From NCBI RefSeq assembly GCF_013315695.1, contig NZ_CP054355.1: a stretch of 64,000 bases of DNA; one strand, written 5' to 3'. A program made the position numbers and the translations under genes. Of the stretch, positions 1 through 58,670 are shown one piece after another. The stretch's first letter is position 1; each line of letters begins with the position of its first letter. The stretch comes from Escherichia coli. Its GTDB lineage: Bacteria; Pseudomonadota; Gammaproteobacteria; Enterobacterales; Enterobacteriaceae. The notes under the pieces are model-generated. The model worked only from the letters and a program-made list of their open reading frames with translations. It searched no databases and had not been told where the DNA came from.

Positions 1-978
1 GTGGATAAGTCGTCCGGTGAGCTGGTGACACTGACACCAAACAATAACAACACCGTACAACCTGTGGCGCTGATGCGTCTGGGCGTCTTTGTACCTACCC
101 TTAAGTCACTGAAGAACAGTAAAAAAAATACACTGTCACGCACCGATGCCACGGAAGAACTGACGCGTCTTTCTCTGGCCCGTGCAGAAGGATTCGATAA
201 GGTTGAGATCACCGGCCCCCGGCTGGATATGGATAACGATTTCAAGACCTGGGTGGGGATCATTCATTCCTTTGCCCGCCATAACGTGATTGGTGACAAA
301 GTTGAACTGCCTTTTGTCGAGTTTGCAAAACTGTGTGGTATACCCTCAAGCCAGTCATCACGCAGGCTGCGTGAGCGCATCAGCCCTTCCCTGAAACGCA
401 TTGCCGGTACCGTGATCTCCTTTTCCCGCACCGATGAGAAGCACACCCGGGAATACATCACCCATCTGGTACAGTCAGCCTACTACGATACTGAACGGGA
501 TATTGTTCAGTTACAGGCTGATCCCCGCCTTTTTGAACTGTACCAGTTTGACAGAAAGGTCCTTCTTCAGCTTAAGGCGATTAATGCCCTGAAGCGACGG
601 GAGTCCGCCCAGGCACTTTACACCTTTATAGAGAGCCTGCCCCGGGATCCGGCACCGATATCGCTGGCGCGGCTGCGTGCACGCCTCAATCTGAAGTCTC
701 CTGTATTTTCCCAGAACCAGACGGTCAGACGGGCAATGGAGCAGTTGCGCGAGATTGGATATCTTGATTACACGGAGATCCAGCGGGGGCGGACAAAATT
801 CTTCTGTATTCACTACCGGCGTCCCCGGTTAAAAGCGCCGAATGATGAGAGTAAGGAAAATCAGTTGCCACCTTCACCTGCGGAAAAAATCAGTCCGGAG
901 ATGGCGGAGAAGCTTGCCCTGCTTGAAAAACTGGGCATCACGCTGGATGACCTGGAAAAACTCTTCAAATCCCGCTGA
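1..978 (+). CDS. repA: RepFIB-type plasmid replication initiator RepA (325 aa)
   Basis: ORF track 1..978 (GTG start at window edge); sequence recognised as IncFIB RepA ([17 protein letters not shown]...); iteron-like repeats immediately downstream. Confidence 0.85.
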
Positions 979-981
979 ACA

Positions 982-1152
982 TAAACTGTAGTCAGATAAG
1001 AGAGACTCTTTACTGACTACAGTTTATATTAACAGGTGCAGTGAGTGATGTGCTCACTGTAGTTTATATTCAGTTTCCTGCTGCACTGTCTGTGGCTGAG
1101 CTGCCATCTGCCTGTTCCTTACATAAAACACGGCTTACTCACTACAGTTTAT
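982..1152. repeat. RepFIB iteron-like repeats (ctgactacagtttat-type copies, one inverted)
   Basis: Copies of a ~15-20 bp motif read directly at about 982-996 (inverted), 1012-1030, 1054-1070 and 1137-1152. Confidence 0.5.
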
Positions 1153-1220
1153 CTACCTGCTATAGCTTATGTTATGCCTGTTCTGCTTACCTCCGCTTAT
1201 ATAAGGAAGAGCGTATGCTG

Positions 1221-1961
1221 TCACTTCAGGGGAGGCAGTGTACGCAGGATCTCTGCAGCATCGCGCCCGTCACCTGTGAAAGGCACTGCCAGCGTGGCAG
1301 CCATATCCAGCGCAAAAACTCTGGTATAAACCTCCATCGAACGTGGATCCCTGTGACCAGCCAGTGCCTGGATGACTTTCCGGGGCTGGCGGTGATAGAG
1401 CATGTGCATGATATAGCTGTGCCGGAAGGTATGTGGTGTGACCGGAATCGAAAAATGCACGCCGTCAGCTTCAGCCCGCTTCACCGCCTGTTTCAGCCAG
1501 TTGCGCATTGTCTCATCCGTGACCGGCCATAACGGCTCCCGCCGGCGGGGCCGGGTGGTGATCATCCAGCTTTCCATCTGCCTGACATAGCTTATATCTG
1601 TCAGCGGAACCAGGCGCACTTCATCTTTTGGCGGGCGTCCGCGTCGCGCACGCACTTTTTCGGACAGGATCCGCACAAACGGTCTTACTCCATCCAGGTC
1701 AAATGATTCCGGCGTCAGCATCCGGGCTTCGCCAATACGCATTCCGGTATTCCAGAGGGTGGCGAACAGCATATGGTGACGCTGATCCGGCATATAGAAA
1801 AGAAGGGCACTCACTTCCGGGGCCAGCAGGTAGGCCGGTGTGGCCCCCGTGGAAGTGGCCATTCTTCTCAGGGAGAGCGCTGTTGCAAAATCCACCCCCG
1901 GCGCAATGGGTAACAGGGAGACGCGTTCTGGTGAATTCTGCAGGGGAATGACATTGTTCAT
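1221..1961 (-). CDS. int: Tyrosine site-specific recombinase (phage integrase family) associated with RepFIB
   Basis: 246-aa ORF with C-terminal R...HxxR...Y catalytic-type motifs (HTFRHSY, GHRD...Y); position next to RepFIB as in F-like plasmids. Confidence 0.75.
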
Positions 1962-2341
1962 GAGTTATTTTTCACGTAGCACACGCACTGTTTATGGATA
2001 CAGGTATTCTGACCTGAACGCCCGGATCCTTCCACGACAATAAATCGCAGCGCGCGGATCCTTTTGTTTGATTATCACGCATTATTGCGGGTAAAACCAA
2101 ATGCGTAAAGGCGCATTTTGCCGCAGGGATCCCGTCTTAAGCCAGTCATGGTGCGGGCTGAGAGCTGGTTTACCGTTTTTGGGAGAATTGGGGTAATGCC
2201 AGGAACAGGCAGATACGGAGAAAAATCCTGCAGATAACCTTCTACGACAACTGAAGGTGTCTGACGCCATATTCTTAGCTACTTCTCAGTTTTAAGGCGG
2301 CTTAGTCACAACATAAGGTTATGCATAATAAGCATATTTTA

Positions 2342-2361
2342 TTATGTTATGTTATGTTATG
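2342..2361. repeat. Pentanucleotide tandem repeat (TTATG)x4
   Basis: Read directly: ttatgttatgttatgttatg in an AT-rich intergenic region. Confidence 0.6.
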
Positions 2362-2577
2362 GTCTTGTTCATGCATGAACTGTTATCTATTCAGTCACTT
2401 TTAACGTTTTATATCATACTGCATATGACACAATCATCTTCTATATTCAGATTAAAAATATTATGACGACGATCAAATAAATTTAGTGAAATCATTACTT
2501 ACAATAATATGTTTATGACATAATTTATCAAAAATATCCGACAACCTTCCTGAAAGGTTACTGCGAGGAGTCAAACA

Positions 2578-2640
2578 ATGAAGTGTAATAACTTATTCAC
2601 TCTTTTTTATGCTCTCTTTATAGCAAAACCAGGAAGTTAA
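2578..2640 (+). CDS. Putative 20-codon small ORF (MKCNNLFTLFYALFIAKPGS) preceded by GAGGAG Shine-Dalgarno
   Basis: Manual reading: GAGGAG about 8 nt upstream of ATG; stop TAA abuts the ATG of the following membrane-protein ORF; below ORF-track size cutoff. Confidence 0.25.
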   Translation: MKCNNLFTLFYALFIAKPGS

Positions 2641-2641
2641 A

Positions 2642-3811
2642 ATGAATCAGAAGTGGAAGACGCTAATAGTTTCAGTATTAACACCATCAAGTATTATATC
2701 AGGGATTGCGTTGATAGTTCTCTGGGGATATTTCAGTCGTCTGGATCGACTTGATATTTTCTTTGATGTGATGAATATTAAAAGCATCTTGGTATTGGTT
2801 TGTTGTACAACTATTCTATCATTGATTATGATCATTTTTATTTTTTTTATAACATCTTTTTTTATACCAATAGTTATTCCTTATGATATAAAAAATCTTC
2901 CTGCTTACAATAAGATTCAGGGTAATTTTTTATCTGTAATGATGTTATCTGGCCTCTTCCCCATGGCCTTTATATACGTGTTATACTGTGCATTTGATTT
3001 TGACCAGAGTGTTAAAGATAACTCTGGCTGGTTATCTATTTTAAGTATAGGAGTACTAATAGTTGTTATTTCAGCCATAATAAACACGAGGTATCTTGAA
3101 TATGACTTATCGTTTAAAAATAATAGAATGAAACTGTTGAGACGTGTTCAGATCTATCTTGTCATTCCGTTGTCTATTGCTTTACTGGTGCATCTTCAGG
3201 TAATTCCACTGGAGATGGTTTTTAGGAATATTGAAACTTCAGATAAGAGTATTAATTTCAAAGTGATAGCTGAACTGGCTTTCATGTCATATTTTATTTT
3301 TATTCTGACAATACTTCCCGGCCTCATTTATCTAAAAATGAATCCACAGCATAAACTTTCTAAAAGAATTAGTTCTGCATTTGTCGCATCCTTGATGATA
3401 TTATTAGTTATATCGACTCAAATAACCGTATTACCAGTAATTTTTACCCATTCAGTTATTAAGCTCTCAGGTATAAGTGACTTCAAAATACATAGCTACA
3501 TTATTAAAACAAGTGAATATCCGGAGGAGTTTTTTTCCAATGCAGTATGGGGTAAAAAAAATATAAAACCGGGGGAATATTACTCTGTGCAGGCTGTTTC
3601 TATGTTTACGACAAACCAGTTTATTCTCCTTTGTCCCAAGGATATTATAAGGTTTTATCGGGAAAGCTGGAAGTTCGACCTGCTTAATGTAGACTTCGAT
3701 ACAAATACCAGGAAGAAACTCCAGGAAGAAGCAGCATATTGCGTACCAATTTCTGCAATATCTGTAAAACGATGGGATATGCCTCTTCAGGGCTCGAAAC
3801 CCTCAAATTAG
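2642..3811 (+). CDS. Hypothetical polytopic inner-membrane protein (about 8 predicted TM helices plus about 120-aa C-terminal soluble domain)
   Basis: ORF track 389 aa; long hydrophobic stretches; AT-rich codon usage; no family recognised. Confidence 0.5.
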   Translation: MNQKWKTLIVSVLTPSSIISGIALIVLWGYFSRLDRLDIFFDVMNIKSILVLVCCTTILSLIMIIFIFFITSFFIPIVIPYDIKNLPAYNKIQGNFLSVMMLSGLFPMAFIYVLYCAFDFDQSVKDNSGWLSILSIGVLIVVISAIINTRYLEYDLSFKNNRMKLLRRVQIYLVIPLSIALLVHLQVIPLEMVFRNIETSDKSINFKVIAELAFMSYFIFILTILPGLIYLKMNPQHKLSKRISSAFVASLMILLVISTQITVLPVIFTHSVIKLSGISDFKIHSYIIKTSEYPEEFFSNAVWGKKNIKPGEYYSVQAVSMFTTNQFILLCPKDIIRFYRESWKFDLLNVDFDTNTRKKLQEEAAYCVPISAISVKRWDMPLQGSKPSN

Positions 3812-3889
3812 AAGGCCGCTCGTGCGACTGTATTAGATAGTAATGCGGTATGGAAAAATAGTGATGGCAAGATGAACTTGACTTGGCTA

Positions 3890-4141
<252 letters not shown>

Positions 4142-4657
4142 TTATTTCCGAACCTCGCCCTTGCCTGCGTAACCATCCGTCGCCCCCATCCTGTTTTCAG
4201 ACTGCGGAAAAAGGCAAGTTTTTATCCCCCCACAGAGATTCAATCATATATCGCGTGTTTTGGAAGTGACAGTTCTTATTCCTGAGAATACTGCATGTGC
4301 AACACACTCGGCATCCATCGATACCACTTTTATCTCCAATAGGCAGGATAAAAAACAAGACTGTGAATTAAAGTAATCGGCAAATGAATGAGTTAGAAGA
4401 TACTGAAAATGAATCAAGGACTAACCCCGTAGGGAATGAAAATAATAAAAGAACATCTTGTTTTTATTTTAATGAATGAGCATGTTCTTTTATATTAATA
4501 ACAAAACCTATCATTAAACAAAATGATGAATGACAGAGTTTTCTTTAAAATAGCTTATATTATCTTACAGTAGCTGACATAGTGCAATATAAATTATCAG
4601 CTATGCCATAACGGCTTAGCAGTGTCTAAGCGTAAGAATCAAGACTTCAGTTACAGT

Positions 4658-4873
4658 TTACTCACGGTAGAAATATTTAAGAGCACTAACAATACTGTGT
4701 GTATAGTTTAGTTTTTTTAGGCATAGGCAAAAATAACTAATGGAAACATTGTTCCTTTCACAACTTTCTTGCTTTGAATAACCATCAACCAAATACTCCT
4801 TAAGAGCCATGATGTTTTTTTTACTTCTGATTGGTGATATTTCAATTAAAAGTGAAAAGTGTTCTCCATTCAT
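4658..4873 (-). CDS. PapB/FaeB/PefB-family fimbrial operon regulator (orphan)
   Basis: ORF 4658..4930; segment EHFSLLIEISPIRSKKNIMALKEYLVDGYSKQESCERNNVSISYF parallels PapB (HFFLLIGISSIHSDRVILAMKDYLVGGHSRKEVCEKYQMNNGYF); likely start at internal Met. Confidence 0.55.
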   Translation of the reverse strand: MNGEHFSLLIEISPIRSKKNIMALKEYLVDGYSKQESCERNNVSISYFCLCLKKLNYTHSIVSALKYFYRE

Positions 4874-5454
4874 ACATGATTGAATTAGCTCTGTATTAAA
4901 GTTATTTCTTGGATAGGGGGAGGGAGTCATATATTATCTAACCTTATTTTTCTATTAAAGAATTGAAATAGAATAGACAGAAATGCTATTGGAGTAAGTA
5001 TTTGATAGTAGGTAATTTACGCTCCTATATAGACTATTGTTACTCATATAATATTTTGGGGTGGCTTATGTTGTGACAGCGCCAGTTGTTAAAAACGTTG
5101 TACCGTCATACGGGATAATATAGAACAACCAATAACGATTACTGGTCTATGACCACCGCCAGAGATACAGAAAAGCTTTATCTGTAATGAGCTCAACTAT
5201 ATATCCCGTCAACTGCTGGTTCAGAGCGTTGTCGTAAAAATCCTGTGCAAATAAATTAGTCATATATCAAGCCATTTACGCGGTAACTGGCAGGTCTGAA
5301 ATTTAACCTCCTGACGATGCAGGCTTGCATACATCCATAGTTTTACTTTGGTATGTGACTCTAAGTATGTAGATCATCAGTCCGGCATGGAACGCTGTTT
5401 TGACCCGCTAAAATCCTTACGGAAAAGTAAGGATGTGGATTTGCCCCTATATTT

Positions 5455-5568
5455 CCAGTCATCGGTTCGTCTGAGAATGACGTGCAACTGCGCACGCGAC
5501 ACCCGGAGACAACGGCTGACTAAGCTTACTCCCCATCCCCGGGCAATAAGGGCGCGTGCGCTATCCAC
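5455..5568 (-). pseudogene. insD: IS2 insD 5' fragment (truncated transposase OrfB)
   Basis: [38 protein letters not shown] then unrelated sequence. Confidence 0.7.
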
Positions 5569-5891
5569 TTTTTTGCACGCCCATATTCAACGGCTTCTTT
5601 AAGGAGTTCATTTTCCATCGTTTTTTTGCCGAGCAGGCGCTGGAGTTCTTTAATCTGCTTCATGGCAGCAGCAAGTTCAGAGGCAGGAACGACCTGTTCT
5701 CCTGCGGCCACAGCAGTAAGACTTCCCTCCTGGTATTGCTTGCGCCAGAGAAATAACTGGCTGGCTGCCACACCGTGTTGCCGGGCAACAAGGGAGACCG
5801 TCATTCCCGGTTCAAAGCTCTGCTGAACAATAGCGATCTTTTCCTGTGTAGTACGCCGTCTGCGTTTCTCCGGTCCTAAGACATCAATCAT
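5526..5891 (-). CDS. insC: IS2 transposase OrfA (InsC)
   Basis: Protein [56 protein letters not shown]... matches IS2 InsC. Confidence 0.85.
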
Positions 5892-6132
5892 CTGTTCTCC
5901 AATGACTAGTCTAAAAACTAGTATTAAGACTATCACTTATTTAAGTGATATTGGTTGTCTGGAGATTCAGGGGGCCAGTCTAAATTCCGTATTGCTGGTT
6001 CTTTATCGGTAGAAAAATCAATATCCATAGCATCGGTCGCAGGCGCTGATACATTGCAGAGCGACCGGGTATTAGAGTCGCTATTCACTGGTTATCACTG
6101 AACGCTGCGTGATCAGGGTTGCATTAATAAAA

Positions 6133-6152
6133 TGATATGTTATAACATATCA
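6133..6152. promoter_or_regulatory. Perfect 20-bp palindrome tgatatgttataacatatca, candidate Fur-like operator upstream of heme receptor gene
   Basis: Read directly; perfect dyad symmetry, AT-rich hexamers resembling Fur-box repeats; 21 bp upstream of ORF start. Confidence 0.35.
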
Positions 6153-6172
6153 ATATTAACATATATTTTCGC

Positions 6173-8143
6173 ATGTATATGAACGTAATCAGAAACGTCA
6201 TTTGTACATTAATCATACTCCCGATAGGGTTACAGGCAGAGACCAGTCATTCTTCTATGGCTAAAGATACAATCACCGTTGTCGCGACAGGAAATCAGAA
6301 CACGGTATTTGAAACGCCGTCAATGGTCAGTGTCGTCACGAATGACACGCCATGGAGTCAGAATGCGGTCACATCAGCCGGCATGCTGAAAGGTGTTGCC
6401 GGTCTCAGCCAGACTGGTGCAGGACGGACCAATGGGCAGACCTTTAATCTACGCGGCTATGACAAAAGCGGGGTACTTGTTCTTGTTGACGGCATCCGTC
6501 AACTCAGTGACATGGCAAAAAGCAGTGGCACTTATCTGGATCCGGCACTCGTCAAACGTATCGAAGTTGTCCGCGGACCAAACTCCAGTCTGTACGGCAG
6601 TGGCGGGCTGGGAGGTGTTGTGGACTTCAGAACTGCCGATGCAGCAGATTTCCTTCCCCCCGGAGAGACAAACGGTTTAAGTCTGTGGGGAAATATCGCC
6701 AGTGGTGACCACAGCACAGGCTCGGGGCTCACCTGGTTCGGTAAAACCGGAAAAACAGATGCGCTCCTTTCTGTCATTATGCGTAAAAGAGGTAATATCT
6801 ATCAAAGTGATGGTGAGCGCGCACCTAACAAGGAAAAACCTGCAGCCCTGTTTGCGAAAGGCTCTGTCGGTATAACAGACAGTAACAAAGCAGGTGCCAG
6901 CTTGCGTCTCTACCGGAATAACACCACTGAACCGGGCAATCCCACTCAGACACATGGTGACAGCGGCCTGCGTGACAGAAAAACAGTACAAAATGACGTA
7001 CAGTTCTGGTACCAGTACGCTCCTGTGGATAACAGCCTCATCAATGTAAAGTCAACTTTATATCTCAGTGATATCACTATCAAGACAAACGGTCACAACA
7101 AAACGGCAGAATGGAGAAACAACAGAACCTCCGGTGTTAATGTTGTCAACAGGAGTCATACTCTGATTTTTCCGGGAGCCCATCAGTTAAGTTATGGCGC
7201 TGAATATTACCGTCAGCAGCAGAAGCCAGAAGGCTCTGCCACACTATATCCGGAAGGAAACATTGACTTTACATCGTTGTATTTCCAGGATGAAATGACA
7301 ATGAAAAGCTACCCGGTTAACATTATCGTCGGTTCCCGCTATGACCGGTACAAGAGCTTCAATCCCCGTGCCGGAGAACTGAAAGCCGAACGCCTGTCCC
7401 CAAGGGCGGCGATTTCAGTCTCACCGACAGACTGGCTGATGATGTACGGCTCCATATCCTCTGCATTCCGTGCCCCCACAATGGCAGAAATGTACAGGGA
7501 TGATGTACATTTTTACCGCAAGGGTAAACCCAATTACTGGGTACCTAACCTTAATCTGAAACCAGAAAATAACATTACCCGTGAGATTGGCGCAGGTATT
7601 CAACTGGACGGCCTGCTTACAGGCAATGATCGGCTGCAGTTGAAAGGCGGATATTTCGGAACGGATGCCAGAAACTATATTGCCACGCGCGTGGATATGA
7701 AACGGATGCGTTCTTATTCTTATAATGTATCCCGGGCCCGTATCTGGGGATGGGATATGCAGGGAAATTACCAGTCTGATTATTTTGACTGGATGCTTTC
7801 TTATAACCGCACGGAAAGTATGGATGCCAGCAGCAGGGAATGGCTGGGCTCCGGCAATCCTGACACACTCATCAGTGACATCAGTATACCTGTTGGTCAT
7901 GGAGGAGTTTCTGCCGGATGGCGTGCTGAACTTTCGGCAGCAGCCACGCATGTGAAAAAAGGCGATCCCCATCAGGCTGGCTATGCCGTACATTCCTTTT
8001 CACTGTCTTATAAGCCTGTAAGTGTTAAAGGCTTTGAGGCATCAGTGACTCTGGATAATGCCTTCAACAAGCTTGCCATGAATGGCAAAGGAGTGCCGCT
8101 TTCAGGCAGAACTGTCAGTCTTTATACCCGTTATCAGTGGTAA
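6173..8143 (+). CDS. TonB-dependent outer-membrane heme/hemoglobin receptor (ChuA/ShuA family)
   Basis: 656 aa; N-terminal TonB-box-like DTITVVA; blocks YGAEYYRQQQKPEG, SAFRAPTMAEMY, YWVPNLNLKPE and C-terminal YQW closely parallel ChuA. Confidence 0.8.
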   Translation: MYMNVIRNVICTLIILPIGLQAETSHSSMAKDTITVVATGNQNTVFETPSMVSVVTNDTPWSQNAVTSAGMLKGVAGLSQTGAGRTNGQTFNLRGYDKSGVLVLVDGIRQLSDMAKSSGTYLDPALVKRIEVVRGPNSSLYGSGGLGGVVDFRTADAADFLPPGETNGLSLWGNIASGDHSTGSGLTWFGKTGKTDALLSVIMRKRGNIYQSDGERAPNKEKPAALFAKGSVGITDSNKAGASLRLYRNNTTEPGNPTQTHGDSGLRDRKTVQNDVQFWYQYAPVDNSLINVKSTLYLSDITIKTNGHNKTAEWRNNRTSGVNVVNRSHTLIFPGAHQLSYGAEYYRQQQKPEGSATLYPEGNIDFTSLYFQDEMTMKSYPVNIIVGSRYDRYKSFNPRAGELKAERLSPRAAISVSPTDWLMMYGSISSAFRAPTMAEMYRDDVHFYRKGKPNYWVPNLNLKPENNITREIGAGIQLDGLLTGNDRLQLKGGYFGTDARNYIATRVDMKRMRSYSYNVSRARIWGWDMQGNYQSDYFDWMLSYNRTESMDASSREWLGSGNPDTLISDISIPVGHGGVSAGWRAELSAAATHVKKGDPHQAGYAVHSFSLSYKPVSVKGFEASVTLDNAFNKLAMNGKGVPLSGRTVSLYTRYQW

Positions 8144-8149
8144 CAAATC

Positions 8150-8941
8150 ATGATGAAAAATACAGGTTATATCTTAGCTCTTTGTCTGACAGCATCGGGG
8201 CATGTCCTGGCCCACGATGTCTGGATTACAGGTAAACAGGCAGAGAACAACATTACCGCAGAGATTGGTTATGGTCATAATTTCCCCTCAAAGGGCACAA
8301 TTCCTGACAGAAGGAATTTCTTTGAAAATCCCCGGATTTATAACGGGAAAGAGACAATAACACTGAAGCCAGCGTCCACGGATTATGTCTATAAAACTGA
8401 GTCTGCAAGCAAAGATAATGGCTACGTTTTGTCAACATATATGAAACCGGGATACTGGTCGAGAACCTCTTCAGGATGGAAACCGGTCAGCCGGGAGGGC
8501 AGAAATGATGTGGCTTACTGTGAGTTTGTCACTAAATATGCGAAATCTTTTATTCCTGGTGAACAGCAGATGCCAGCACAACTCTATCAGTCTCCAACGG
8601 GGCATGAGCTTGAAATCATTCCGTTATCCGATATAAGTCGTTTCAGTGAAGATGTGAAGCTGAAAGTCCTGTATAAAACGTCCCCGCTCGCCGGAGCTAT
8701 CATGGAGCTTGACTCGGTCAGTTATCTGAAATCATCCCGTCATACTCATGCAGTTGAGCACAAACATCCTGTTCATAAAGCAGAACTCACCTTTGTAACT
8801 AATGAGGATGGTATCGTCACAGTACCTTCTCTTCATATTGGACAGTGGCTGGCGAAAGTCCAAAATAAGAAAAGTTTTCAGGACAAAAGCCTGTGTGATG
8901 AAACTGTCGATGTGGCAACTTTAAGTTTCTCCCGAAATTAA
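8150..8941 (+). CDS. Secreted/periplasmic protein, possibly DUF4198-like partner of TonB-dependent receptor
   Basis: 263 aa with signal peptide and mature start AHDVWI; 6 bp downstream of receptor gene; family assignment from memory only. Confidence 0.4.
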   Translation: MMKNTGYILALCLTASGHVLAHDVWITGKQAENNITAEIGYGHNFPSKGTIPDRRNFFENPRIYNGKETITLKPASTDYVYKTESASKDNGYVLSTYMKPGYWSRTSSGWKPVSREGRNDVAYCEFVTKYAKSFIPGEQQMPAQLYQSPTGHELEIIPLSDISRFSEDVKLKVLYKTSPLAGAIMELDSVSYLKSSRHTHAVEHKHPVHKAELTFVTNEDGIVTVPSLHIGQWLAKVQNKKSFQDKSLCDETVDVATLSFSRN

Positions 8942-9003
8942 CAATACTATTCCCTGCCCTGAAATTGTAAGCGTGCAGCAAGAACCGTATTGACGGGGAT
9001 GTG

Positions 9004-32664: not shown

Positions 32665-34044
32665 TTATTCCTCCCTCATGTCGGCAGGAACAAACTGCTC
32701 CGGCGTTTCACGGAAGCGTTCATAGTTAGCCTCTGACGAGAAGAACCAGGTCTTGCCGCCATAGCTGTATTTGTAATCGGCTGAGGTATTGGTCAACGTT
32801 GAACCATCGACCGGATCGGTCACTTTAATAGTCATGACCGTCGAGAAGTAGTTCACCCCTGTCGCCAGTTCTTTACCGGGGATCACCAGCTCTTTTTCAT
32901 CATTGTGCCAGTTTTCAATCGGCACCGGGTTACAGCCACCGGCCTTGCCGATAGACGGAATAAAAATATGCACTCCGCAGGCGACGCAGATAACCTGATT
33001 GCCCTCCATGACATAACCCTGATCGCCGCACAGCAGGCAGGCGTCGAACACCACGCCAAAACGCAGCTTGTCGGGATAGCGGTTAATCACGAAGAAGCGC
33101 ACCGCTTTGCCATCGTCCGCCACCCAGACGAAACGATGCAGTTTACCGTCACGAAGCTGTTCAACCGGCAGGCGCACCATGCCATCGCTCCCCAGCGTTA
33201 CGGGCACGGCTTCAGAGAGTTGCGGCGGCTGCGAGGCCACTTTATCCCACCACAGTTGGCCTGCGATAACGACCACCGCGCAGCCGATTGTGACCAACCA
33301 CAGCCGCAAAGCGTTGCGACGCTGCGCCAGCGCCAGACGGTGAGCAATCGGTTCTTCGGTTTCCCGCGTCTGTCGAAAAGCCCGCAACAGCGCCGGAAGC
33401 CAGCACAGCGCCAGGGCCAGCAGCAGCGCGGCTCCCGCCCAGTTATACAGCGCCGTGTTATTTGTGACTTTCGCCACGAAGCTCAGCAGTGATTTTCCCA
33501 GCGGAACAACCTGTAATTTCATCAGCAACAACAGCAGGTTGCCGCTCAGCGGCAGCCAGATCATCACCAGCAGAATCAGCGTTAACGGCCAGTACAGGCC
33601 GCGAATACGCCGCAGCAGCATCGCGCAGAGTACGCCCGCCAGACAGAGGATCGCAAAAGCGAGAACGACGGCCGTCAGGTTTAACAGCAGGTCAGTATTC
33701 AGCACATGCGTACTGGTCAGCCCGCCCAGATTAGGGTCCAGCGCCCAATGGCGGGCAGCGCCGAAAATCAGAATCCCCTGCCACAGATAGCGGATACGCG
33801 TTGAAGCCCACCAGAAACTGAGGACAAACAGCAGCGATACCATGACCTCCGCCCCAACCAGCAGCAGTTGTACCGGTTGGCTGCCGTGAATAAACAGTCC
33901 CGCCAGCACGCCGGCAATCAGCCCGGTCAGCAGCGTCCAGGTCAGCGGACGTAAAGAGGGAGGATCGTTTCGACTCCAGAGAACACCGGAAAGAAGCGCA
34001 ATGCAGAAAAAGACCTGTAGCGTCGTGACGAAAAAGTAACTCAT
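32665..34044 (-). CDS. Polytopic membrane protein with Cys-rich C-terminal periplasmic domain (Fet/cFtr cluster component)
   Basis: 459 aa; multiple TM helices then CLLCGD...CVACG motif. Confidence 0.6.
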   Translation of the reverse strand: MSYFFVTTLQVFFCIALLSGVLWSRNDPPSLRPLTWTLLTGLIAGVLAGLFIHGSQPVQLLLVGAEVMVSLLFVLSFWWASTRIRYLWQGILIFGAARHWALDPNLGGLTSTHVLNTDLLLNLTAVVLAFAILCLAGVLCAMLLRRIRGLYWPLTLILLVMIWLPLSGNLLLLLMKLQVVPLGKSLLSFVAKVTNNTALYNWAGAALLLALALCWLPALLRAFRQTRETEEPIAHRLALAQRRNALRLWLVTIGCAVVVIAGQLWWDKVASQPPQLSEAVPVTLGSDGMVRLPVEQLRDGKLHRFVWVADDGKAVRFFVINRYPDKLRFGVVFDACLLCGDQGYVMEGNQVICVACGVHIFIPSIGKAGGCNPVPIENWHNDEKELVIPGKELATGVNYFSTVMTIKVTDPVDGSTLTNTSADYKYSYGGKTWFFSSEANYERFRETPEQFVPADMREE

Positions 34045-54100: not shown

Positions 54101-56445
54101 ACGGAATGCCCGGGCGTTTCCACCCAGCCGTTCTCCAGCTTCAGTGCCGTGAACGGTGAATCAGCCACAGGCAGGGTGGCCGGTTCAGCCCGCCCCGGCA
54201 CAACAACCGTCATCGCATCTTCACTGACGGATGCCACCTGCAGGCGGTCACCGCCGGAGACGCGGAGTCCGGGAATTTTCCCTGTCACCCTCAGTCGCTC
54301 GCCGTCTGCCACCGGCATTTTTTCCGGCCGGAACAGCGACCAGCTGCTGTCCAGGGAGGAAATACGCACCACCTGCGTTTCGCCCTGCGCATCCCGCAGG
54401 GTCAGGCTGTGACTCTGCGCCGTCACCCGGTCGATAACATAGCGGTCATGACTGCGTGTCTCCGGGTTCCACTGCTCCATCACCATCCCCGGTCGGTACA
54501 TATCCCGCAGATAACGGCTCCGGCTGTCCAGCCAGACCGGTGACAGGGCGGTCATGGTCACCTCCGGGTGTCCGAGCACGCCCTGTGTTTTCAGCTCACT
54601 GCGAATGGCCTGTGTCAGTATGGCCTGTTCCCGTACCCCGCTGACCTGTGCCACGCTCTCTTCTCCGGCTTTCACGCTGGCCGCAAAATCTCCGGCCAGC
54701 CGGTCATAGCGGACATTCCGGTCCGGTTCACTGATGATGGTTGCCGGTCGCTGTTCTCCGCCCTGCCAGCGATACGTGTTCACCCCGGTATCCTTCATGG
54801 CCATCAGCGCACTGCCTGTACCGGTTCGCTGCCCGCTGTCGGTTATCAGGACCTGTACGTTATGACGTGCGGCACCGTCCAGCAGGGTTAACGTCTCTTT
54901 CAGGGAGAGTTTTTCGCCCTGGTCGACGATAACAGTACTGCCCGGCGTGAAGACCATGCCCTCCTGCAGCTGACGACGTCCGGTTATCAGCTCACCGGAC
55001 AGCCGTTCATCCTGCTTCAGGTTCATCTGCGAGCGACGGTCAGCAGCGATAATCTGCACCTCCCGCCCCTGCTCCCGGGCCATCATGACCAGTTCAGCCA
55101 CCCGCTCACGCTGCCCGGCTGCACCGCCCTGCCCGGACACAATGGCCAGCGACGGACGGTCCTGTGCCAGAACACTGACCGCATCGCTGTAACCAGCCGT
55201 CCGGGGGACACTTTTCTCCGGATGTACGGTCACCCGGTTCTGTTTCATGATGTCACGACTGAGTGCCCGGACGGACAGCTCATCGAGCACATGAATTCCT
55301 GATGTGAACAGCCCCTTCTCACGGTCGAGGGGGATAAGCTGCTCACGGCTGATGGCCTCATCGATACCGGCGCGTGCCCGTTCAATCACACCATTTTCCG
55401 GCGGCAGTATGCCGACCGTCCTGGCCAGCACGTCCGTATACGTGAACTGCACTTTTCGTTCACTTAATCCGGCAATCGCCTGTGTCACCGCCTGCTGCAC
55501 ATCCGGCCCGTCCTGTGAAGCAGGCCCGGGCGCCTGCGTGCGGATCTCCGCACGCTGATCCGCCGCGTCACGATATGCCCGGATGTCGAACCCGGTTTCC
55601 TTCAGCGTCTGCATCCATTCAGCCATTCTGATTTCCGGATCGACGTGCTGTTTGGATTTACGCGTATCCAGTGCCGCCACATCCCGGGATTTCAGCGAGG
55701 CGTCTTCCCCGACGGCCTCCCGGATAGCCTGTGAGCGTCCGGAAAAGGCCTCCACCGGTACGCCCGGCATCTCCCACATACCGTGCTTACCCACCACTTC
55801 GGTTTCATAGCCCAGCGCCTCAACCTGCTCTTTCAGTTTTTCCCGGTAGAGCCTGCCAAAGGCAATCTGATTAGCGTACACATTCTCAATGAACCCCGTT
55901 TTCCCCACTTTGTCACTGCTCAGTGTCTTCCACTCACCGTTATGCTGCGTGACATTAGCCACCACCGCATGCGTGTGTAACTGTGGTTCCTGATCGCGAC
56001 TGGTGTCGTGGTTAAACAGTGCCATCACCAGATTACCGGTCAGCACCGTTTCTGACTGTCCGTCCGTCATCACCCGTGTGGAGGCCAGCGCCTCCACCTG
56101 ACGAACAGCAAAGTCCACGGCCTGGTTATGTGCATCAATCAGGCGCTTATCGCCACCTAACATGGCCATCATGGAGACACTTTTGGGGGCGGAGAAGGTC
56201 AGGTCGTAGCCGGGACGATGCTTATTACTGCCATCCTGCATGCGGCTTAGATCCGCTCCGTCCGGCAGCCTTCCCTCCAGAAGACGGGTAAAAACATCCT
56301 TATCGACACTGCCCTGCAGTCCCAGCTGTTCAGCCCCCCTGCCGGCCCAGCGTTCTCCCATGCTGCCCAGTACATAGTAATTATCCTTGTCGGTATAATA
56401 GTTACCGGCACTTCCGGCCGATCTGACCTGCGCGATACTCATCAT
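51175..56445 (-). CDS. traI: Relaxase/helicase TraI
   Basis: 1756 aa; N-terminal relaxase, helicase Walker motifs; F TraI length and sequence pattern. Confidence 0.95.
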   Translation of the reverse strand: MMSIAQVRSAGSAGNYYTDKDNYYVLGSMGERWAGRGAEQLGLQGSVDKDVFTRLLEGRLPDGADLSRMQDGSNKHRPGYDLTFSAPKSVSMMAMLGGDKRLIDAHNQAVDFAVRQVEALASTRVMTDGQSETVLTGNLVMALFNHDTSRDQEPQLHTHAVVANVTQHNGEWKTLSSDKVGKTGFIENVYANQIAFGRLYREKLKEQVEALGYETEVVGKHGMWEMPGVPVEAFSGRSQAIREAVGEDASLKSRDVAALDTRKSKQHVDPEIRMAEWMQTLKETGFDIRAYRDAADQRAEIRTQAPGPASQDGPDVQQAVTQAIAGLSERKVQFTYTDVLARTVGILPPENGVIERARAGIDEAISREQLIPLDREKGLFTSGIHVLDELSVRALSRDIMKQNRVTVHPEKSVPRTAGYSDAVSVLAQDRPSLAIVSGQGGAAGQRERVAELVMMAREQGREVQIIAADRRSQMNLKQDERLSGELITGRRQLQEGMVFTPGSTVIVDQGEKLSLKETLTLLDGAARHNVQVLITDSGQRTGTGSALMAMKDTGVNTYRWQGGEQRPATIISEPDRNVRYDRLAGDFAASVKAGEESVAQVSGVREQAILTQAIRSELKTQGVLGHPEVTMTALSPVWLDSRSRYLRDMYRPGMVMEQWNPETRSHDRYVIDRVTAQSHSLTLRDAQGETQVVRISSLDSSWSLFRPEKMPVADGERLRVTGKIPGLRVSGGDRLQVASVSEDAMTVVVPGRAEPATLPVADSPFTALKLENGWVETPGHSVSDSATVFASVTQMAMDNATLNGLARSGRDVRLYSSLDETRTAEKLARHPSFTVVSEQIKARAGETSLETAISLQKTGLHTPAQQAIHLALPVLESKNLAFSMVDLLTEAKSFAAEGTGFTELGGEINAQIKRGDLLYVDVAKGYGTGLLVSRASYEAEKSILRHILEGKEAVTPLMERVPGELMETLTSGQRAATRMILETSDRFTVVQGYAGVGKTTQFRAVMSAVNMLPASERPRVVGLGPTHRAVGEMRSAGVDAQTLASFLHDTQLQQRSGETPDFSNTLFLLDESSMVGNTDMARAYALIAAGGGRAVASGDTDQLQAIAPGQPFRLQQTRSAADVVIMKEIVRQTPELREAVYSLINRDVERALSGLESVKPSQVPRQEGAWAPEHSVTEFSHSQEAKLAEAQQKAMLKGETFPDVPMTLYEAIVRDYTGRTPEAREQTLIVTHLNEDRRVLNSMIHDAREKAGELGKEQVMVPVLNTANIRDGELRRLSTWENNPDALALVDSVYHRIAGISKDDGLITLEDAEGNTRLISPREAVAEGVTLYTPDKIRVGTGDRMRFTKSDRERGYVANSVWTVTAVSGDSVTLSDGQQTRVIRPGQERAEQHIDLAYAITAHGAQGASETFAIALEGTEGNRKLMAGFESAYVALSRMKQHVQVYTDNRQGWTDAINNAVQKGTAHDVLEPKPDREVMNAQRLFSTARELRDVAAGRAVLRQAGLAGGDSPARFIAPGRKYPQPYVALPAFDRNGKSAGIWLNPLTTDDGNGLRGFSGEGRVKGSGDAQFVALQGSRNGESLLADNMQDGVRIARDNPDSGVVVRIAGEGRPWNPGAITGGRVWGDIPDNSVQPGAGNGEPVTAEVLAQRQAEEAIRRETERRADEIVRKMAENKPDLPDGKTELAVRDIAGQERDRSAISERETALPESVLRESQREREAVREVARENLLQERLQQMERDMVRDLQKEKTLGGD

Positions 56446-58670
56446 CAGAAATCATCTCCCGGCTCAACATCCTCCCCACGCTCCCGGTGCACATTAATGT
56501 TCACCTCTTCACGACGCTGCATCTGCTGCTGGATGTCCGGATGATTTTCCTGTTGCCATGCCTCATAAGCGGCCATATCCACCACTTCACCGGATTCACT
56601 GATCCCGGGTGGCAGTTGCTGTTCCATCTCTTCTTCCGGTTTCATTTTCAGCTCCTGCTCGATCCCCCCTGCCGGAACACTCACACCTGCATCTGACTTC
56701 TTATCATTGATGACAGAAGACACTGGCTGTTGTGGCTGTTGTGGCTGTTGTGGCTGTTGTGGCTGTTGTGGCTGTTGTGGCTGTTGTGGCTGTTGTGGCT
56801 GTTGTGGCTGTTGTGGCTGTTCAGCCTGAGTCACATCTTCTCCGGAGGCAACCTCCGGTTCAAAGAGGCTGGCCATCTGACGACCTTCTGCTTCCCTTGC
56901 GGCAAGTACGGCACTCAGACGGTTCTCCATTTCCGGGTTGATGTCACGCGGAATAAACTCCGGAGCGACCTTCGGTCGTGCCTGATATTTCAGAGAGAGT
57001 TTGACTGCCGGATACGGTCCGGGCAGAGTGACATAGCAGGTCAGATCCGGCAGAGACTGAATGTCGGAATAACTGACCAGCGTCTGACGCTCCATATCCT
57101 TACCGGTCGATACCCCGTCACGTACCGGGTCAGCACCGTAGGAATACTGCTCGCTGGCTTTCAGGTGCTCTTTCTCACCAATCTCACCGGCAGCGAACTC
57201 TGCAATCTTATGGCTCGGGGAACGGAAAAAAGCACGGGTGTTCATGACGTCAAACAGCGTGGCCGCCGCTTTCTCACCGTAGATATCTTCCAGCTGGGCA
57301 TAGGACTGGATACCAAACACATAACAGCCACCGAACTTACGGGCTTCCGGCAGGATCTCCACCAGGTCCGGCAGTTTGTGTAACGTGGGTAACTCGTCAC
57401 AGAAAAACCACACACGACGGTTACGGTTTTCTCCCATTGCCAGCAGACCACGAATGGCAATGGACAGCCACATGGAGATCACCGGCTTCAGGGAGGCATG
57501 GGTGTCGGCGTTCGACGAAATAAACAGCCAGCCGTTTTTCTGATCTTCCCGGACACCACGCATCCAGTCACGGATGGTAAAAGACTCACCGTTATGCTCA
57601 ATCCCCTGCAGGTAACGGATGGCTTTCACGTAGTTGGTCAGCACAGCACGGATGGAAATCGCCGTTTTCTCAATTTTCTCTTCCACCAGGTTGGCTGCCG
57701 GTGAATTACGCAGGAAGGTACGCAGTTTTTCAATTTTGATGGAAAGCAGTGTGTCCACCAGTTTGCTGTAGCTGCGGTTGGGGTCATTACGCATCAGGTA
57801 CGCCGCTTCCGCAAAAATGGTACGTCCTGAACCCTGCCAGAACGGGTCCTCTTTTGTACCCATAGGGATCAGAGTATTTGCGGTATTATCAAAATCCGGC
57901 TGTGTCAGGCACTCCTTCCACAAATCCCATGCGGCACAGCGGGCATCCAGCGGATTCAGGATTTTATCGATGGAGGGATCATAGTAACTTTTAACAAATT
58001 CCCCTGAACGGTCATAAATCACCACCATATCACCGCGCTGACGGGCATAGTTGGCCAGACGACGGATAACCTCCGACTTACCGGCCCCGACCGTGCCGTG
58101 CAGACAGAAGTTCTGGATTTCGGAATCCCGGATAATCGGCAGGTCGCCAATCCGGATATCGGAGTCCTTGCCGTCTTTTTTCAGCATCCGGGCCACTTCT
58201 TTCGGGTTATCCGTCAGCTGACGCCCGCCGGTCACCTCATTTTCACTCTGCTGTTTCCCCTGATGCCCCAGAATCCAGGAGACAACAAAGAAGGTGATCA
58301 GGCAAATAACCAGGGCCACGACAGACGCCAGAACGAATGCAGACCATAGCTGCTCTCCGCACCAGATCATATATTTATCATGCAGTACCTGGGCAGCGTT
58401 CATCCGGAAGGTTTTGCCGTAATACTGGATCTCATAGACCGGCTGGGATTTTATTAAATCCCGCATGCCTTCCAGTGACGTACACCACCAGTAAATACAG
58501 CCGTTGATAAACGTCTGCCAGCTTATTTTTACCCATAAGACCAGACCAATGAGGATCCAGAAAAAAATAAACAGGCAGTAAAGCATGATATTGGCGATCT
58601 GGCTGAACATGCGGATACGCATGGACGCAATCTGACCGCCCTGGGTCATATCCTTTGCGTTAAAACTCAT
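56445..58670 (-). CDS. traD: Type IV coupling protein TraD
   Basis: 741 aa; N-terminal TM helices, Walker A, C-terminal QQP repeats. Confidence 0.95.
56725..56818. repeat. Tandem 9-bp repeat (ggctgttgt, about 10 copies) encoding QQP repeats within traD
   Basis: Read directly; in-frame within traD. Confidence 0.85.

Follow-up and report, generated by a model that had tools for sequence, protein, structure and literature searches.

The question raised by this locus is whether a short, perfect tandem repeat lying upstream of a membrane protein gene acts as a switch, i.e., whether slippage within it phase-varies a neighboring gene, or whether it is simply a stretch of plasmid DNA that changes in length. 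The repeat lies in a 64,000-nucleotide stretch of contig NZ_CP054355.1 (the window), which derives from an Escherichia coli IncF virulence/resistance plasmid, and the array adjoins RepFIB. Read directly, TTATGTTATGTTATGTTATG at positions 2342-2361 consists of exactly four TTATG units between CATATTTTA on the left and GTCTTGTT on the right, with no partial unit on either side and GTCTTG following the array. Tandem Repeats Finder reports the same interval with a period of 5, 4.0 copies, 100% matches, and TTATG as the unit. No second perfect period-5 run reaches 20 nt anywhere in the 64 kb, and when perfect short-unit repeats of 15 nt or more are considered, a 9-mer array in TraD is the sole addition. 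When the whole window was simulated with Markov models, 300 times at first order and 300 times at second order, no run comparable to the TTATG array appeared, nor did one in 2,000 + 2,000 simulations of the AT-rich islet in which the array lies (2290-5300); with none in 4,600 composition-matched simulations, (TTATG)x4 is not a chance feature. The sequence-only reading had described a fourfold TTATG repeat a little over 200 bp upstream of a small ORF and a membrane protein gene, and both the repeat and the distance are borne out: 216 bases separate the array from the ATG of a 20-aa ORF (position 2578), and 280 from the ATG of a 389-aa ORF (position 2642).

The array is intergenic, with a tyrosine-recombinase/62-aa ORF pair on the - strand to one side and an AT-rich + strand module to the other. 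RepFIB repA (1-978, + strand) is adjoined by the tyrosine recombinase gene int (1221-1961, - strand, with a match to the Pfam Phage_integrase family), which lies 380 bp from the array. The 62-aa ORF (2082-2270, - strand), whose ATG is 72 bp left of the array, is of doubtful reality; searches for family matches returned none, and it is possibly a spurious gene. Many records name it a "serine/threonine protein kinase," a name that is almost certainly spurious. On its other side, the array sits about 50 bp inside the left edge of the AT-rich islet (2290-5300), in which GC is 0.26-0.44 vs. about 0.5-0.6 on either side. The islet contains the array, the 20-aa ORF, the 389-aa membrane protein gene, IS remnants, and an orphan PapB-family regulator, after which comes a TonB-dependent receptor. 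The 20-aa ORF (MKCNNLFTLFYALFIAKPGS; 2578-2640, + strand) is preceded by GAGGAG, and its stop lies 1 nt ahead of the next start codon. The regulator (4658-4930, - strand; Pfam PapB, E = 1e-32) has no fimbrial operon alongside it, and a 27-bp imperfect tandem repeat of 2.2 copies (4443-4501) lies in AT-rich DNA just beyond the 3' end of its gene. In one relative with a 2-copy array (L012), a complete fimbrial operon lies across repA and includes a PapB/FocB-family regulator of its own, and no regulator is annotated at the position matching 4658-4930 of the window. Both pUTI89 and plasmids of the ST131/ST1193 type share the gene layout of the window. The module is present in 1,257 of the 5,426 complete E. 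coli genomes (~23%) and in 1,198 PLSDB plasmids, some of them from Klebsiella, Salmonella, and Shigella.

To compare copy number among related plasmids, crafted 90- and 95-nt queries (35-nt flanks with four or five units between them) were searched against all 5,426 complete E. coli genomes, which gave about 1,245 records, these being database records rather than independent events. The commonest allele has three units (~716 records), and four units were found in 52 records from assemblies of many laboratories and countries. Two units occur in ~50 records, five in seven (the sources examined were from three cities in China, New Zealand, and Malawi), and six in a single record, a chicken isolate from Nigeria. 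A further 418 records, which make up an 87%-identical lineage, have TCATG+TTATG in place of the array. No allele of more than six units was seen in the census, and only 8 of the ~1,245 records have five or six. The 35-nt flanks are identical in more than 800 full-length matches, and every length difference between alleles is made up of whole 5-bp units in an otherwise conserved context, as seen in the alignment of four representatives: the window (four units), CP088357 (three), pGE3 (two), and p123 from the 87% lineage (TCATG+TTATG). Comparison across isolates had been named beforehand as the check on this repeat, with an invariant copy number as what would count against it; since copy number varies from two to six units, that objection fails. 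The tract is a real length polymorphism, i.e., a polymorphic microsatellite (VNTR) with conserved flanks, and the allele distribution 3 >> 4 > 5 > 6 is what stepwise slippage would produce. A literature search for the TTATG repeat sequence found no relevant paper, and the tract is a previously undescribed plasmid microsatellite of a well-known type. Many of the records are long-read assemblies, which are indel-prone, so one could attribute the length differences to sequencing or assembly error. Against this, the differences are always exact multiples of 5 bp while the surrounding sequence is otherwise the same, and both the 4-copy allele (52 assemblies) and the 5-copy allele (seven records) were recovered repeatedly. 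Moreover, the alleles are tied to haplotypes, the 5- and 6-copy alleles occurring on one haplotype only and the 2-copy allele on divergent lineages only, an association that effectively refutes an artefactual origin, which we regard as extremely improbable.

The haplotypes that carry each allele were compared at 124 variable sites over window positions 1-9000 in 14 closely related sequences, i.e., the window and 13 fetched loci; a second comparison, covering 1900-5000, also took in the 2-copy loci and another two 4-copy loci. The backgrounds that carry four copies number at least five, namely those of the window, pAVS0655-A, OZ043764, pMB9635_1, and the UPEC132 plasmid, and for most of them a 3-copy counterpart exists. 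For instance, pMB9635_1 with four copies and an ST1193 plasmid with three are the same at 123 of the 124 sites. When the array allele (three or four units) was set against the nearest right-hand SNP, 3161 G/A (Val174Ile in the 389-aa protein), in a four-gamete test, all four classes were found: 3+G in 7 records, 4+A in 9, 4+G in ~43, and 3+A in ~700. One haplotype, that of the 4-copy plasmid pAVS0655-A, is common to all seven records with five copies and the only record with six; four of these records show no flanking differences in 13.7 kb, and the remainder have identical protein alleles. That the 5- and 6-unit alleles sit on a 4-unit haplotype, and that longer alleles are rarer, fits stepwise expansion with instability rising with length.

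The presence of the 4-copy allele on at least five flanking haplotypes implies that either slippage recurs or the region recombines, and it could reflect a raised mutation rate or selection. The haplotype pattern matches the prediction of recurrent slippage, with recombination as an alternative source. The region is mosaic: most of the other 4-copy plasmids are set apart from the window by a 38-SNP tract in int (1455-2172), and in the UPEC132 plasmid one haplotype gives way to another somewhere between 2172 and 2370. In a region of this kind, recurrent slippage and recombination are indistinguishable with these sequences. The recombination tract at 1455-2172 ends about 170 bp left of the array, and the window's int and upstream region are identical to those of pUTI89-like plasmids (L010 and L015).

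The sequence-only reading had further placed the repeat in a promoter region, where slipped-strand phase variation might act. The part of this proposal that concerns slippage stands, in that whole-unit alleles of two to six units occur on several haplotypes, but a promoter location and a phase-varying action are not supported, and no sigma-70-like + strand site overlaps or abuts the array. In a consensus scan, no + strand promoter-like site was found between 2271 and 2577, and the scan of 1900-4000 overall gave 8 matches vs. 8.3 expected, i.e., the background level. A position-weight scan of synthetic alleles with two to six units returned the same weak + strand candidates for every allele; these start at least 30 bp downstream of the array and score no better than background. 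The best sigma-70-like match in the intergenic region, which is a consensus match only, is TTGATA-N16-TATTAT (10/12) on the - strand at 2504-2531, and a transcript from this predicted promoter would cross the array, running from 2531-2504 towards the 62-aa ORF and int. A weak - strand pair, TTCATG-N17-CATAAT, spans the array when it has two copies but is lost at three or more. A literature search found no transcription start site map for the array locus. In a DFI-seq promoter-trap study of UTI89, the UTI89_P046/P047 promoter window was among the differentially recovered regions, with a signal that sits at the study's cut-off (PMC5404293). From the common annotation name only, we infer that UTI89_P046 is the 62-aa ORF, in which case the P046/P047 promoter window would contain the pUTI89 array, which has three units. 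Under PhasomeIt-type criteria, a pentanucleotide tract is potentially phase-variable at five or more units and "transcriptional" if no more than 200 bp from an ATG; the window tract falls narrowly short of both, with four units and 216/280 bp to the ATGs (PMC5953494).

We also considered whether the array is read as protein or as structured RNA. A coding role was rejected: in the 87% lineage, frameshifts disrupt both the 35-40-aa ORF that starts at the array ATGs and the "leader" ORF of 20 aa, and the array ATGs have no Shine-Dalgarno sequence. The frameshift shortens the 20-aa ORF to 14 aa in that lineage, so this ORF is probably not a conserved peptide. A known structured RNA was likewise rejected, as no Rfam match at E <= 1 was retrieved from 1900-6200 on either strand.

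The DNA on either side of the array is more suggestive. To the left lies the perfect palindrome TTATGCATAA (2319-2328), with the left ATGCAT, and 5 bp to the right of the array lies the perfect 14-bp palindrome GTTCATGCATGAAC (2367-2380), with an ATGCAT core; the motif TYATGCATRA occurs twice in the 64 kb, both times flanking the array. In addition, an inverted copy of two units, CACAACATAA (2307-2316), which is complementary to TTATGTTATG at 9/10 positions, is located 25 bp left of the array. Both ATGCAT palindromes are unchanged in the 87% lineage, positions 2361-2400 have 97.5% identity to that lineage vs. 80-88% further right, and no part of the intergenic region is better conserved between the two lineages than the 40-80 bp on each side of the array. 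The conserved flanks and palindromes hint at a functional site whose geometry the array alters, and judging from their sequence the ATGCAT palindromes look like operator sites. Every extra unit places them 5 bp further apart, i.e., half a helical turn, which gives centre-to-centre distances of 40, 45, 50, 55, or 60 bp for two to six units. It is possible that the array would have a modulatory role by way of the two palindromes.

The same 87% lineage carries an insert of ~750 bp that splits int and the 62-aa ORF from the array region, which indicates that it is the islet module, rather than int, with which the array travels. In L004 (NZ_CP023378.1) this insert spans 2229-2976, falls between window positions ~2178 and ~2203, is bounded by a ~25-bp direct repeat (TTTGGGAGAA.TGGGGTAATGCC), and seems to encode a small ParD-like antitoxin-type ORF; the 389-aa gene of L004 is cut by IS1. 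In PLSDB, the intergenic region had no DNA homologues beyond a distance of 85% identity.

Phase variation based on simple sequence repeats (SSRs) is rare in E. coli, which weighs against reading the array as a true contingency locus. In such a locus, TTATG slippage would alter the spacing between the two palindromes, or between an upstream element and a promoter, and would thereby switch or adjust either the transcription of the module formed by the 20-aa ORF and the 389-aa gene or the leftward transcript towards the 62-aa ORF and int. A copy number that spans two to six, the existence of all four combinations of three or four units with SNP 3161, the conserved flanks and palindromes, a downstream membrane protein of the typical phase-variable class, the weak - strand pair across the 2-copy array, and the DFI-seq hint of promoter activity in the UTI89 region (with its inferred mapping; PMC5404293) would all be in keeping with this. 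However, the range is confined to 2-6 units with a mode of 3, the window's four units lie below the cut-off of five (PMC5953494), and no strong promoter match is present at or beside the tract, with predictions overall at the background level. Nor do the palindrome spacings form a clear in-phase/out-of-phase series. The alleles are stable over hundreds of records, as with the 3-copy allele, and with visible mosaicism recombination alone can account for the haplotypes. On balance, we find a contingency locus unlikely. The more specific proposal, in which the tract would be a slippage-driven rheostat on widespread ExPEC IncF plasmids (pUTI89-like, ST131/ST1193-type), with palindrome spacing setting expression of the 7-TM protein, as an uncharacterised product of horizontal acquisition, or of the divergent recombinase transcript, appears distinctly unlikely. 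If it were true, E. coli would offer one of few examples of contingency regulation based on an SSR.

The pentamers might instead be protein-binding units in their own right, such that copy number would set the number of putative binding sites, whether as arm-type/accessory sites for the neighbouring tyrosine recombinase or as sites for a nucleoid or PapB-like regulator. TTATG/CATAA in both orientations is clustered in 2307-2361 (the array, the copy at 2307-2316, and within TTATGCATAA), the gene for a tyrosine recombinase is close by, and the inner parts of the Xer-type binding arms of dif and cer read ...CATAA / TTATG.... Nevertheless, a scan with the Xer consensus GGTGCGYAYAA-N6-8-TTATGKTAAAT (11-bp XerC arm, 6-8 bp spacer, 11-bp XerD arm) stayed at chance level, and an Xer/cer-type site at the array was rejected, the best local score of 15/22 being equal to that of shuffled sequence (15-17). 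The 87% lineage speaks against binding units as well, with the insert parting int from the array region and only TCATG+TTATG left in place of the array, and the integrase that neighbours the Lelliottia homologue of the 389-aa protein is unrelated. Altogether we judge it very unlikely that the pentamers serve as binding units. Elsewhere in the window, a cer-like site at 17484-17511 (+ strand) scores 21/22 (GGTACGTACAA-CGGGAG-TTATGGTAAAT) and is presumably the plasmid's multimer-resolution site.

The explanation that we consider probable is ordinary replication slippage in non-coding, AT-rich plasmid DNA, with little or no phenotypic consequence. TTATG units would be gained and lost whole as replication slips, and the length changes would be neutral or nearly so, which would make the tract a marker of plasmid lineage (VNTR) rather than an on/off switch. 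Any effect would be a modest modulation, brought about as each unit turned the DNA upstream, with the left ATGCAT palindrome in it, through half a helical turn relative to whatever promoter stands right of the array. Overall, the description that fits the tract best is that of an ordinary microsatellite with mild instability.

This reading can be set beside known systems. Polymorphic short tandem repeats are used as typing markers (VNTR/MLVA loci) in E. coli and other enterobacteria, and the TTATG tract resembles these in its conserved flanks, its discrete series of units, and its lineage-inherited alleles with occasional stepwise change. It differs from them in being plasmid-borne, in its very short unit and narrow range, and in being undescribed as a marker. 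Intergenic SSRs that do mediate phase variation include the TAAA tract upstream of nadA in Neisseria meningitidis, the TA tract between the -35 and -10 of hifA/hifB in Haemophilus influenzae, and the 7-bp repeats upstream of hmw1A/hmw2A. The TTATG tract shares with these a perfect, short, non-coding tandem repeat upstream of a membrane-protein gene and whole-unit differences between isolates. In contrast to them, it has only two to six units with a mode of three, the start codons are more than 200 bp away, it is neither between nor beside a predicted + strand -35/-10 pair, and its host is E. coli. A pentanucleotide tract of four copies, as in the window, is also found in H. influenzae hsdM, where (GACGA)4 is reported to phase-vary at a high rate and ranges from one to four units among strains, as summarised in PMC2651432 with reference to Zaleski et al. 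2005; going by that account, four units are no absolute bar to switching. The hsdM tract, however, forms part of a coding sequence and works through frameshifts (PMC2651432), whereas the TTATG tract is non-coding, so that a change of unit number has no obvious all-or-none consequence.

As a marker, the tract offers a small and cheap length polymorphism of two to six units with which the very common ExPEC IncFIB plasmids can be subdivided, and it illustrates the speed at which pentanucleotide tracts of three to four units drift. If its length alleles changed expression of the 389-aa gene, it would matter more, as the module is carried by nearly a quarter of complete E. coli genomes.

The gene proposed to be under the control of the array (2642-3811, + strand) encodes a 389-aa orphan membrane protein for which about seven TM helices are predicted; its C-terminal domain, ~115 aa long, contains two Cys residues that are invariant. 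Searches against Pfam, NCBIfam, and PADLOC retrieved no matches, and a Foldseek search of the PDB with its AlphaFold model (pLDDT 74.5) gave none at E <= 0.001. All of its homologues are annotated as hypothetical and almost all are from Enterobacterales, one match of 60% identity being labelled Vibrio parahaemolyticus. Among them are homologues on a metagenome contig (69%), in Lelliottia and Enterobacter (60%), on an E. marmotae IncFII plasmid (53%), in Xenorhabdus (34%), and on E. coli chromosomes (25%). Upstream of the 53-69% homologues (Lelliottia, the metagenome contig, and E. marmotae), the TTATG repeat is absent, and these upstream regions have no similarity to the intergenic region of the window; the array is recent and local to the IncFIB version. 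A conserved module of int and membrane gene was considered and rejected, as the integrase beside the Lelliottia homologue is of unrelated type. The E. marmotae homologue (L021) lies beside SMODS/SLATT (CBASS-like) genes.

Two further tandem repeats in the window lie within coding sequence. The TraD array at 56724-56821 is a perfect 9-nt repeat, TGGCTGTTG x10.9, which on the - strand encodes the (QQP)x10 tract of TraD (ORF 56445-58670); in F-type TraD this region is known to be variable. An 18-bp imperfect repeat of 2.8 copies (33378-33429) lies within a 459-aa membrane-protein ORF (32665-34044, - strand), where it codes for a leucine/alanine-rich TM stretch.
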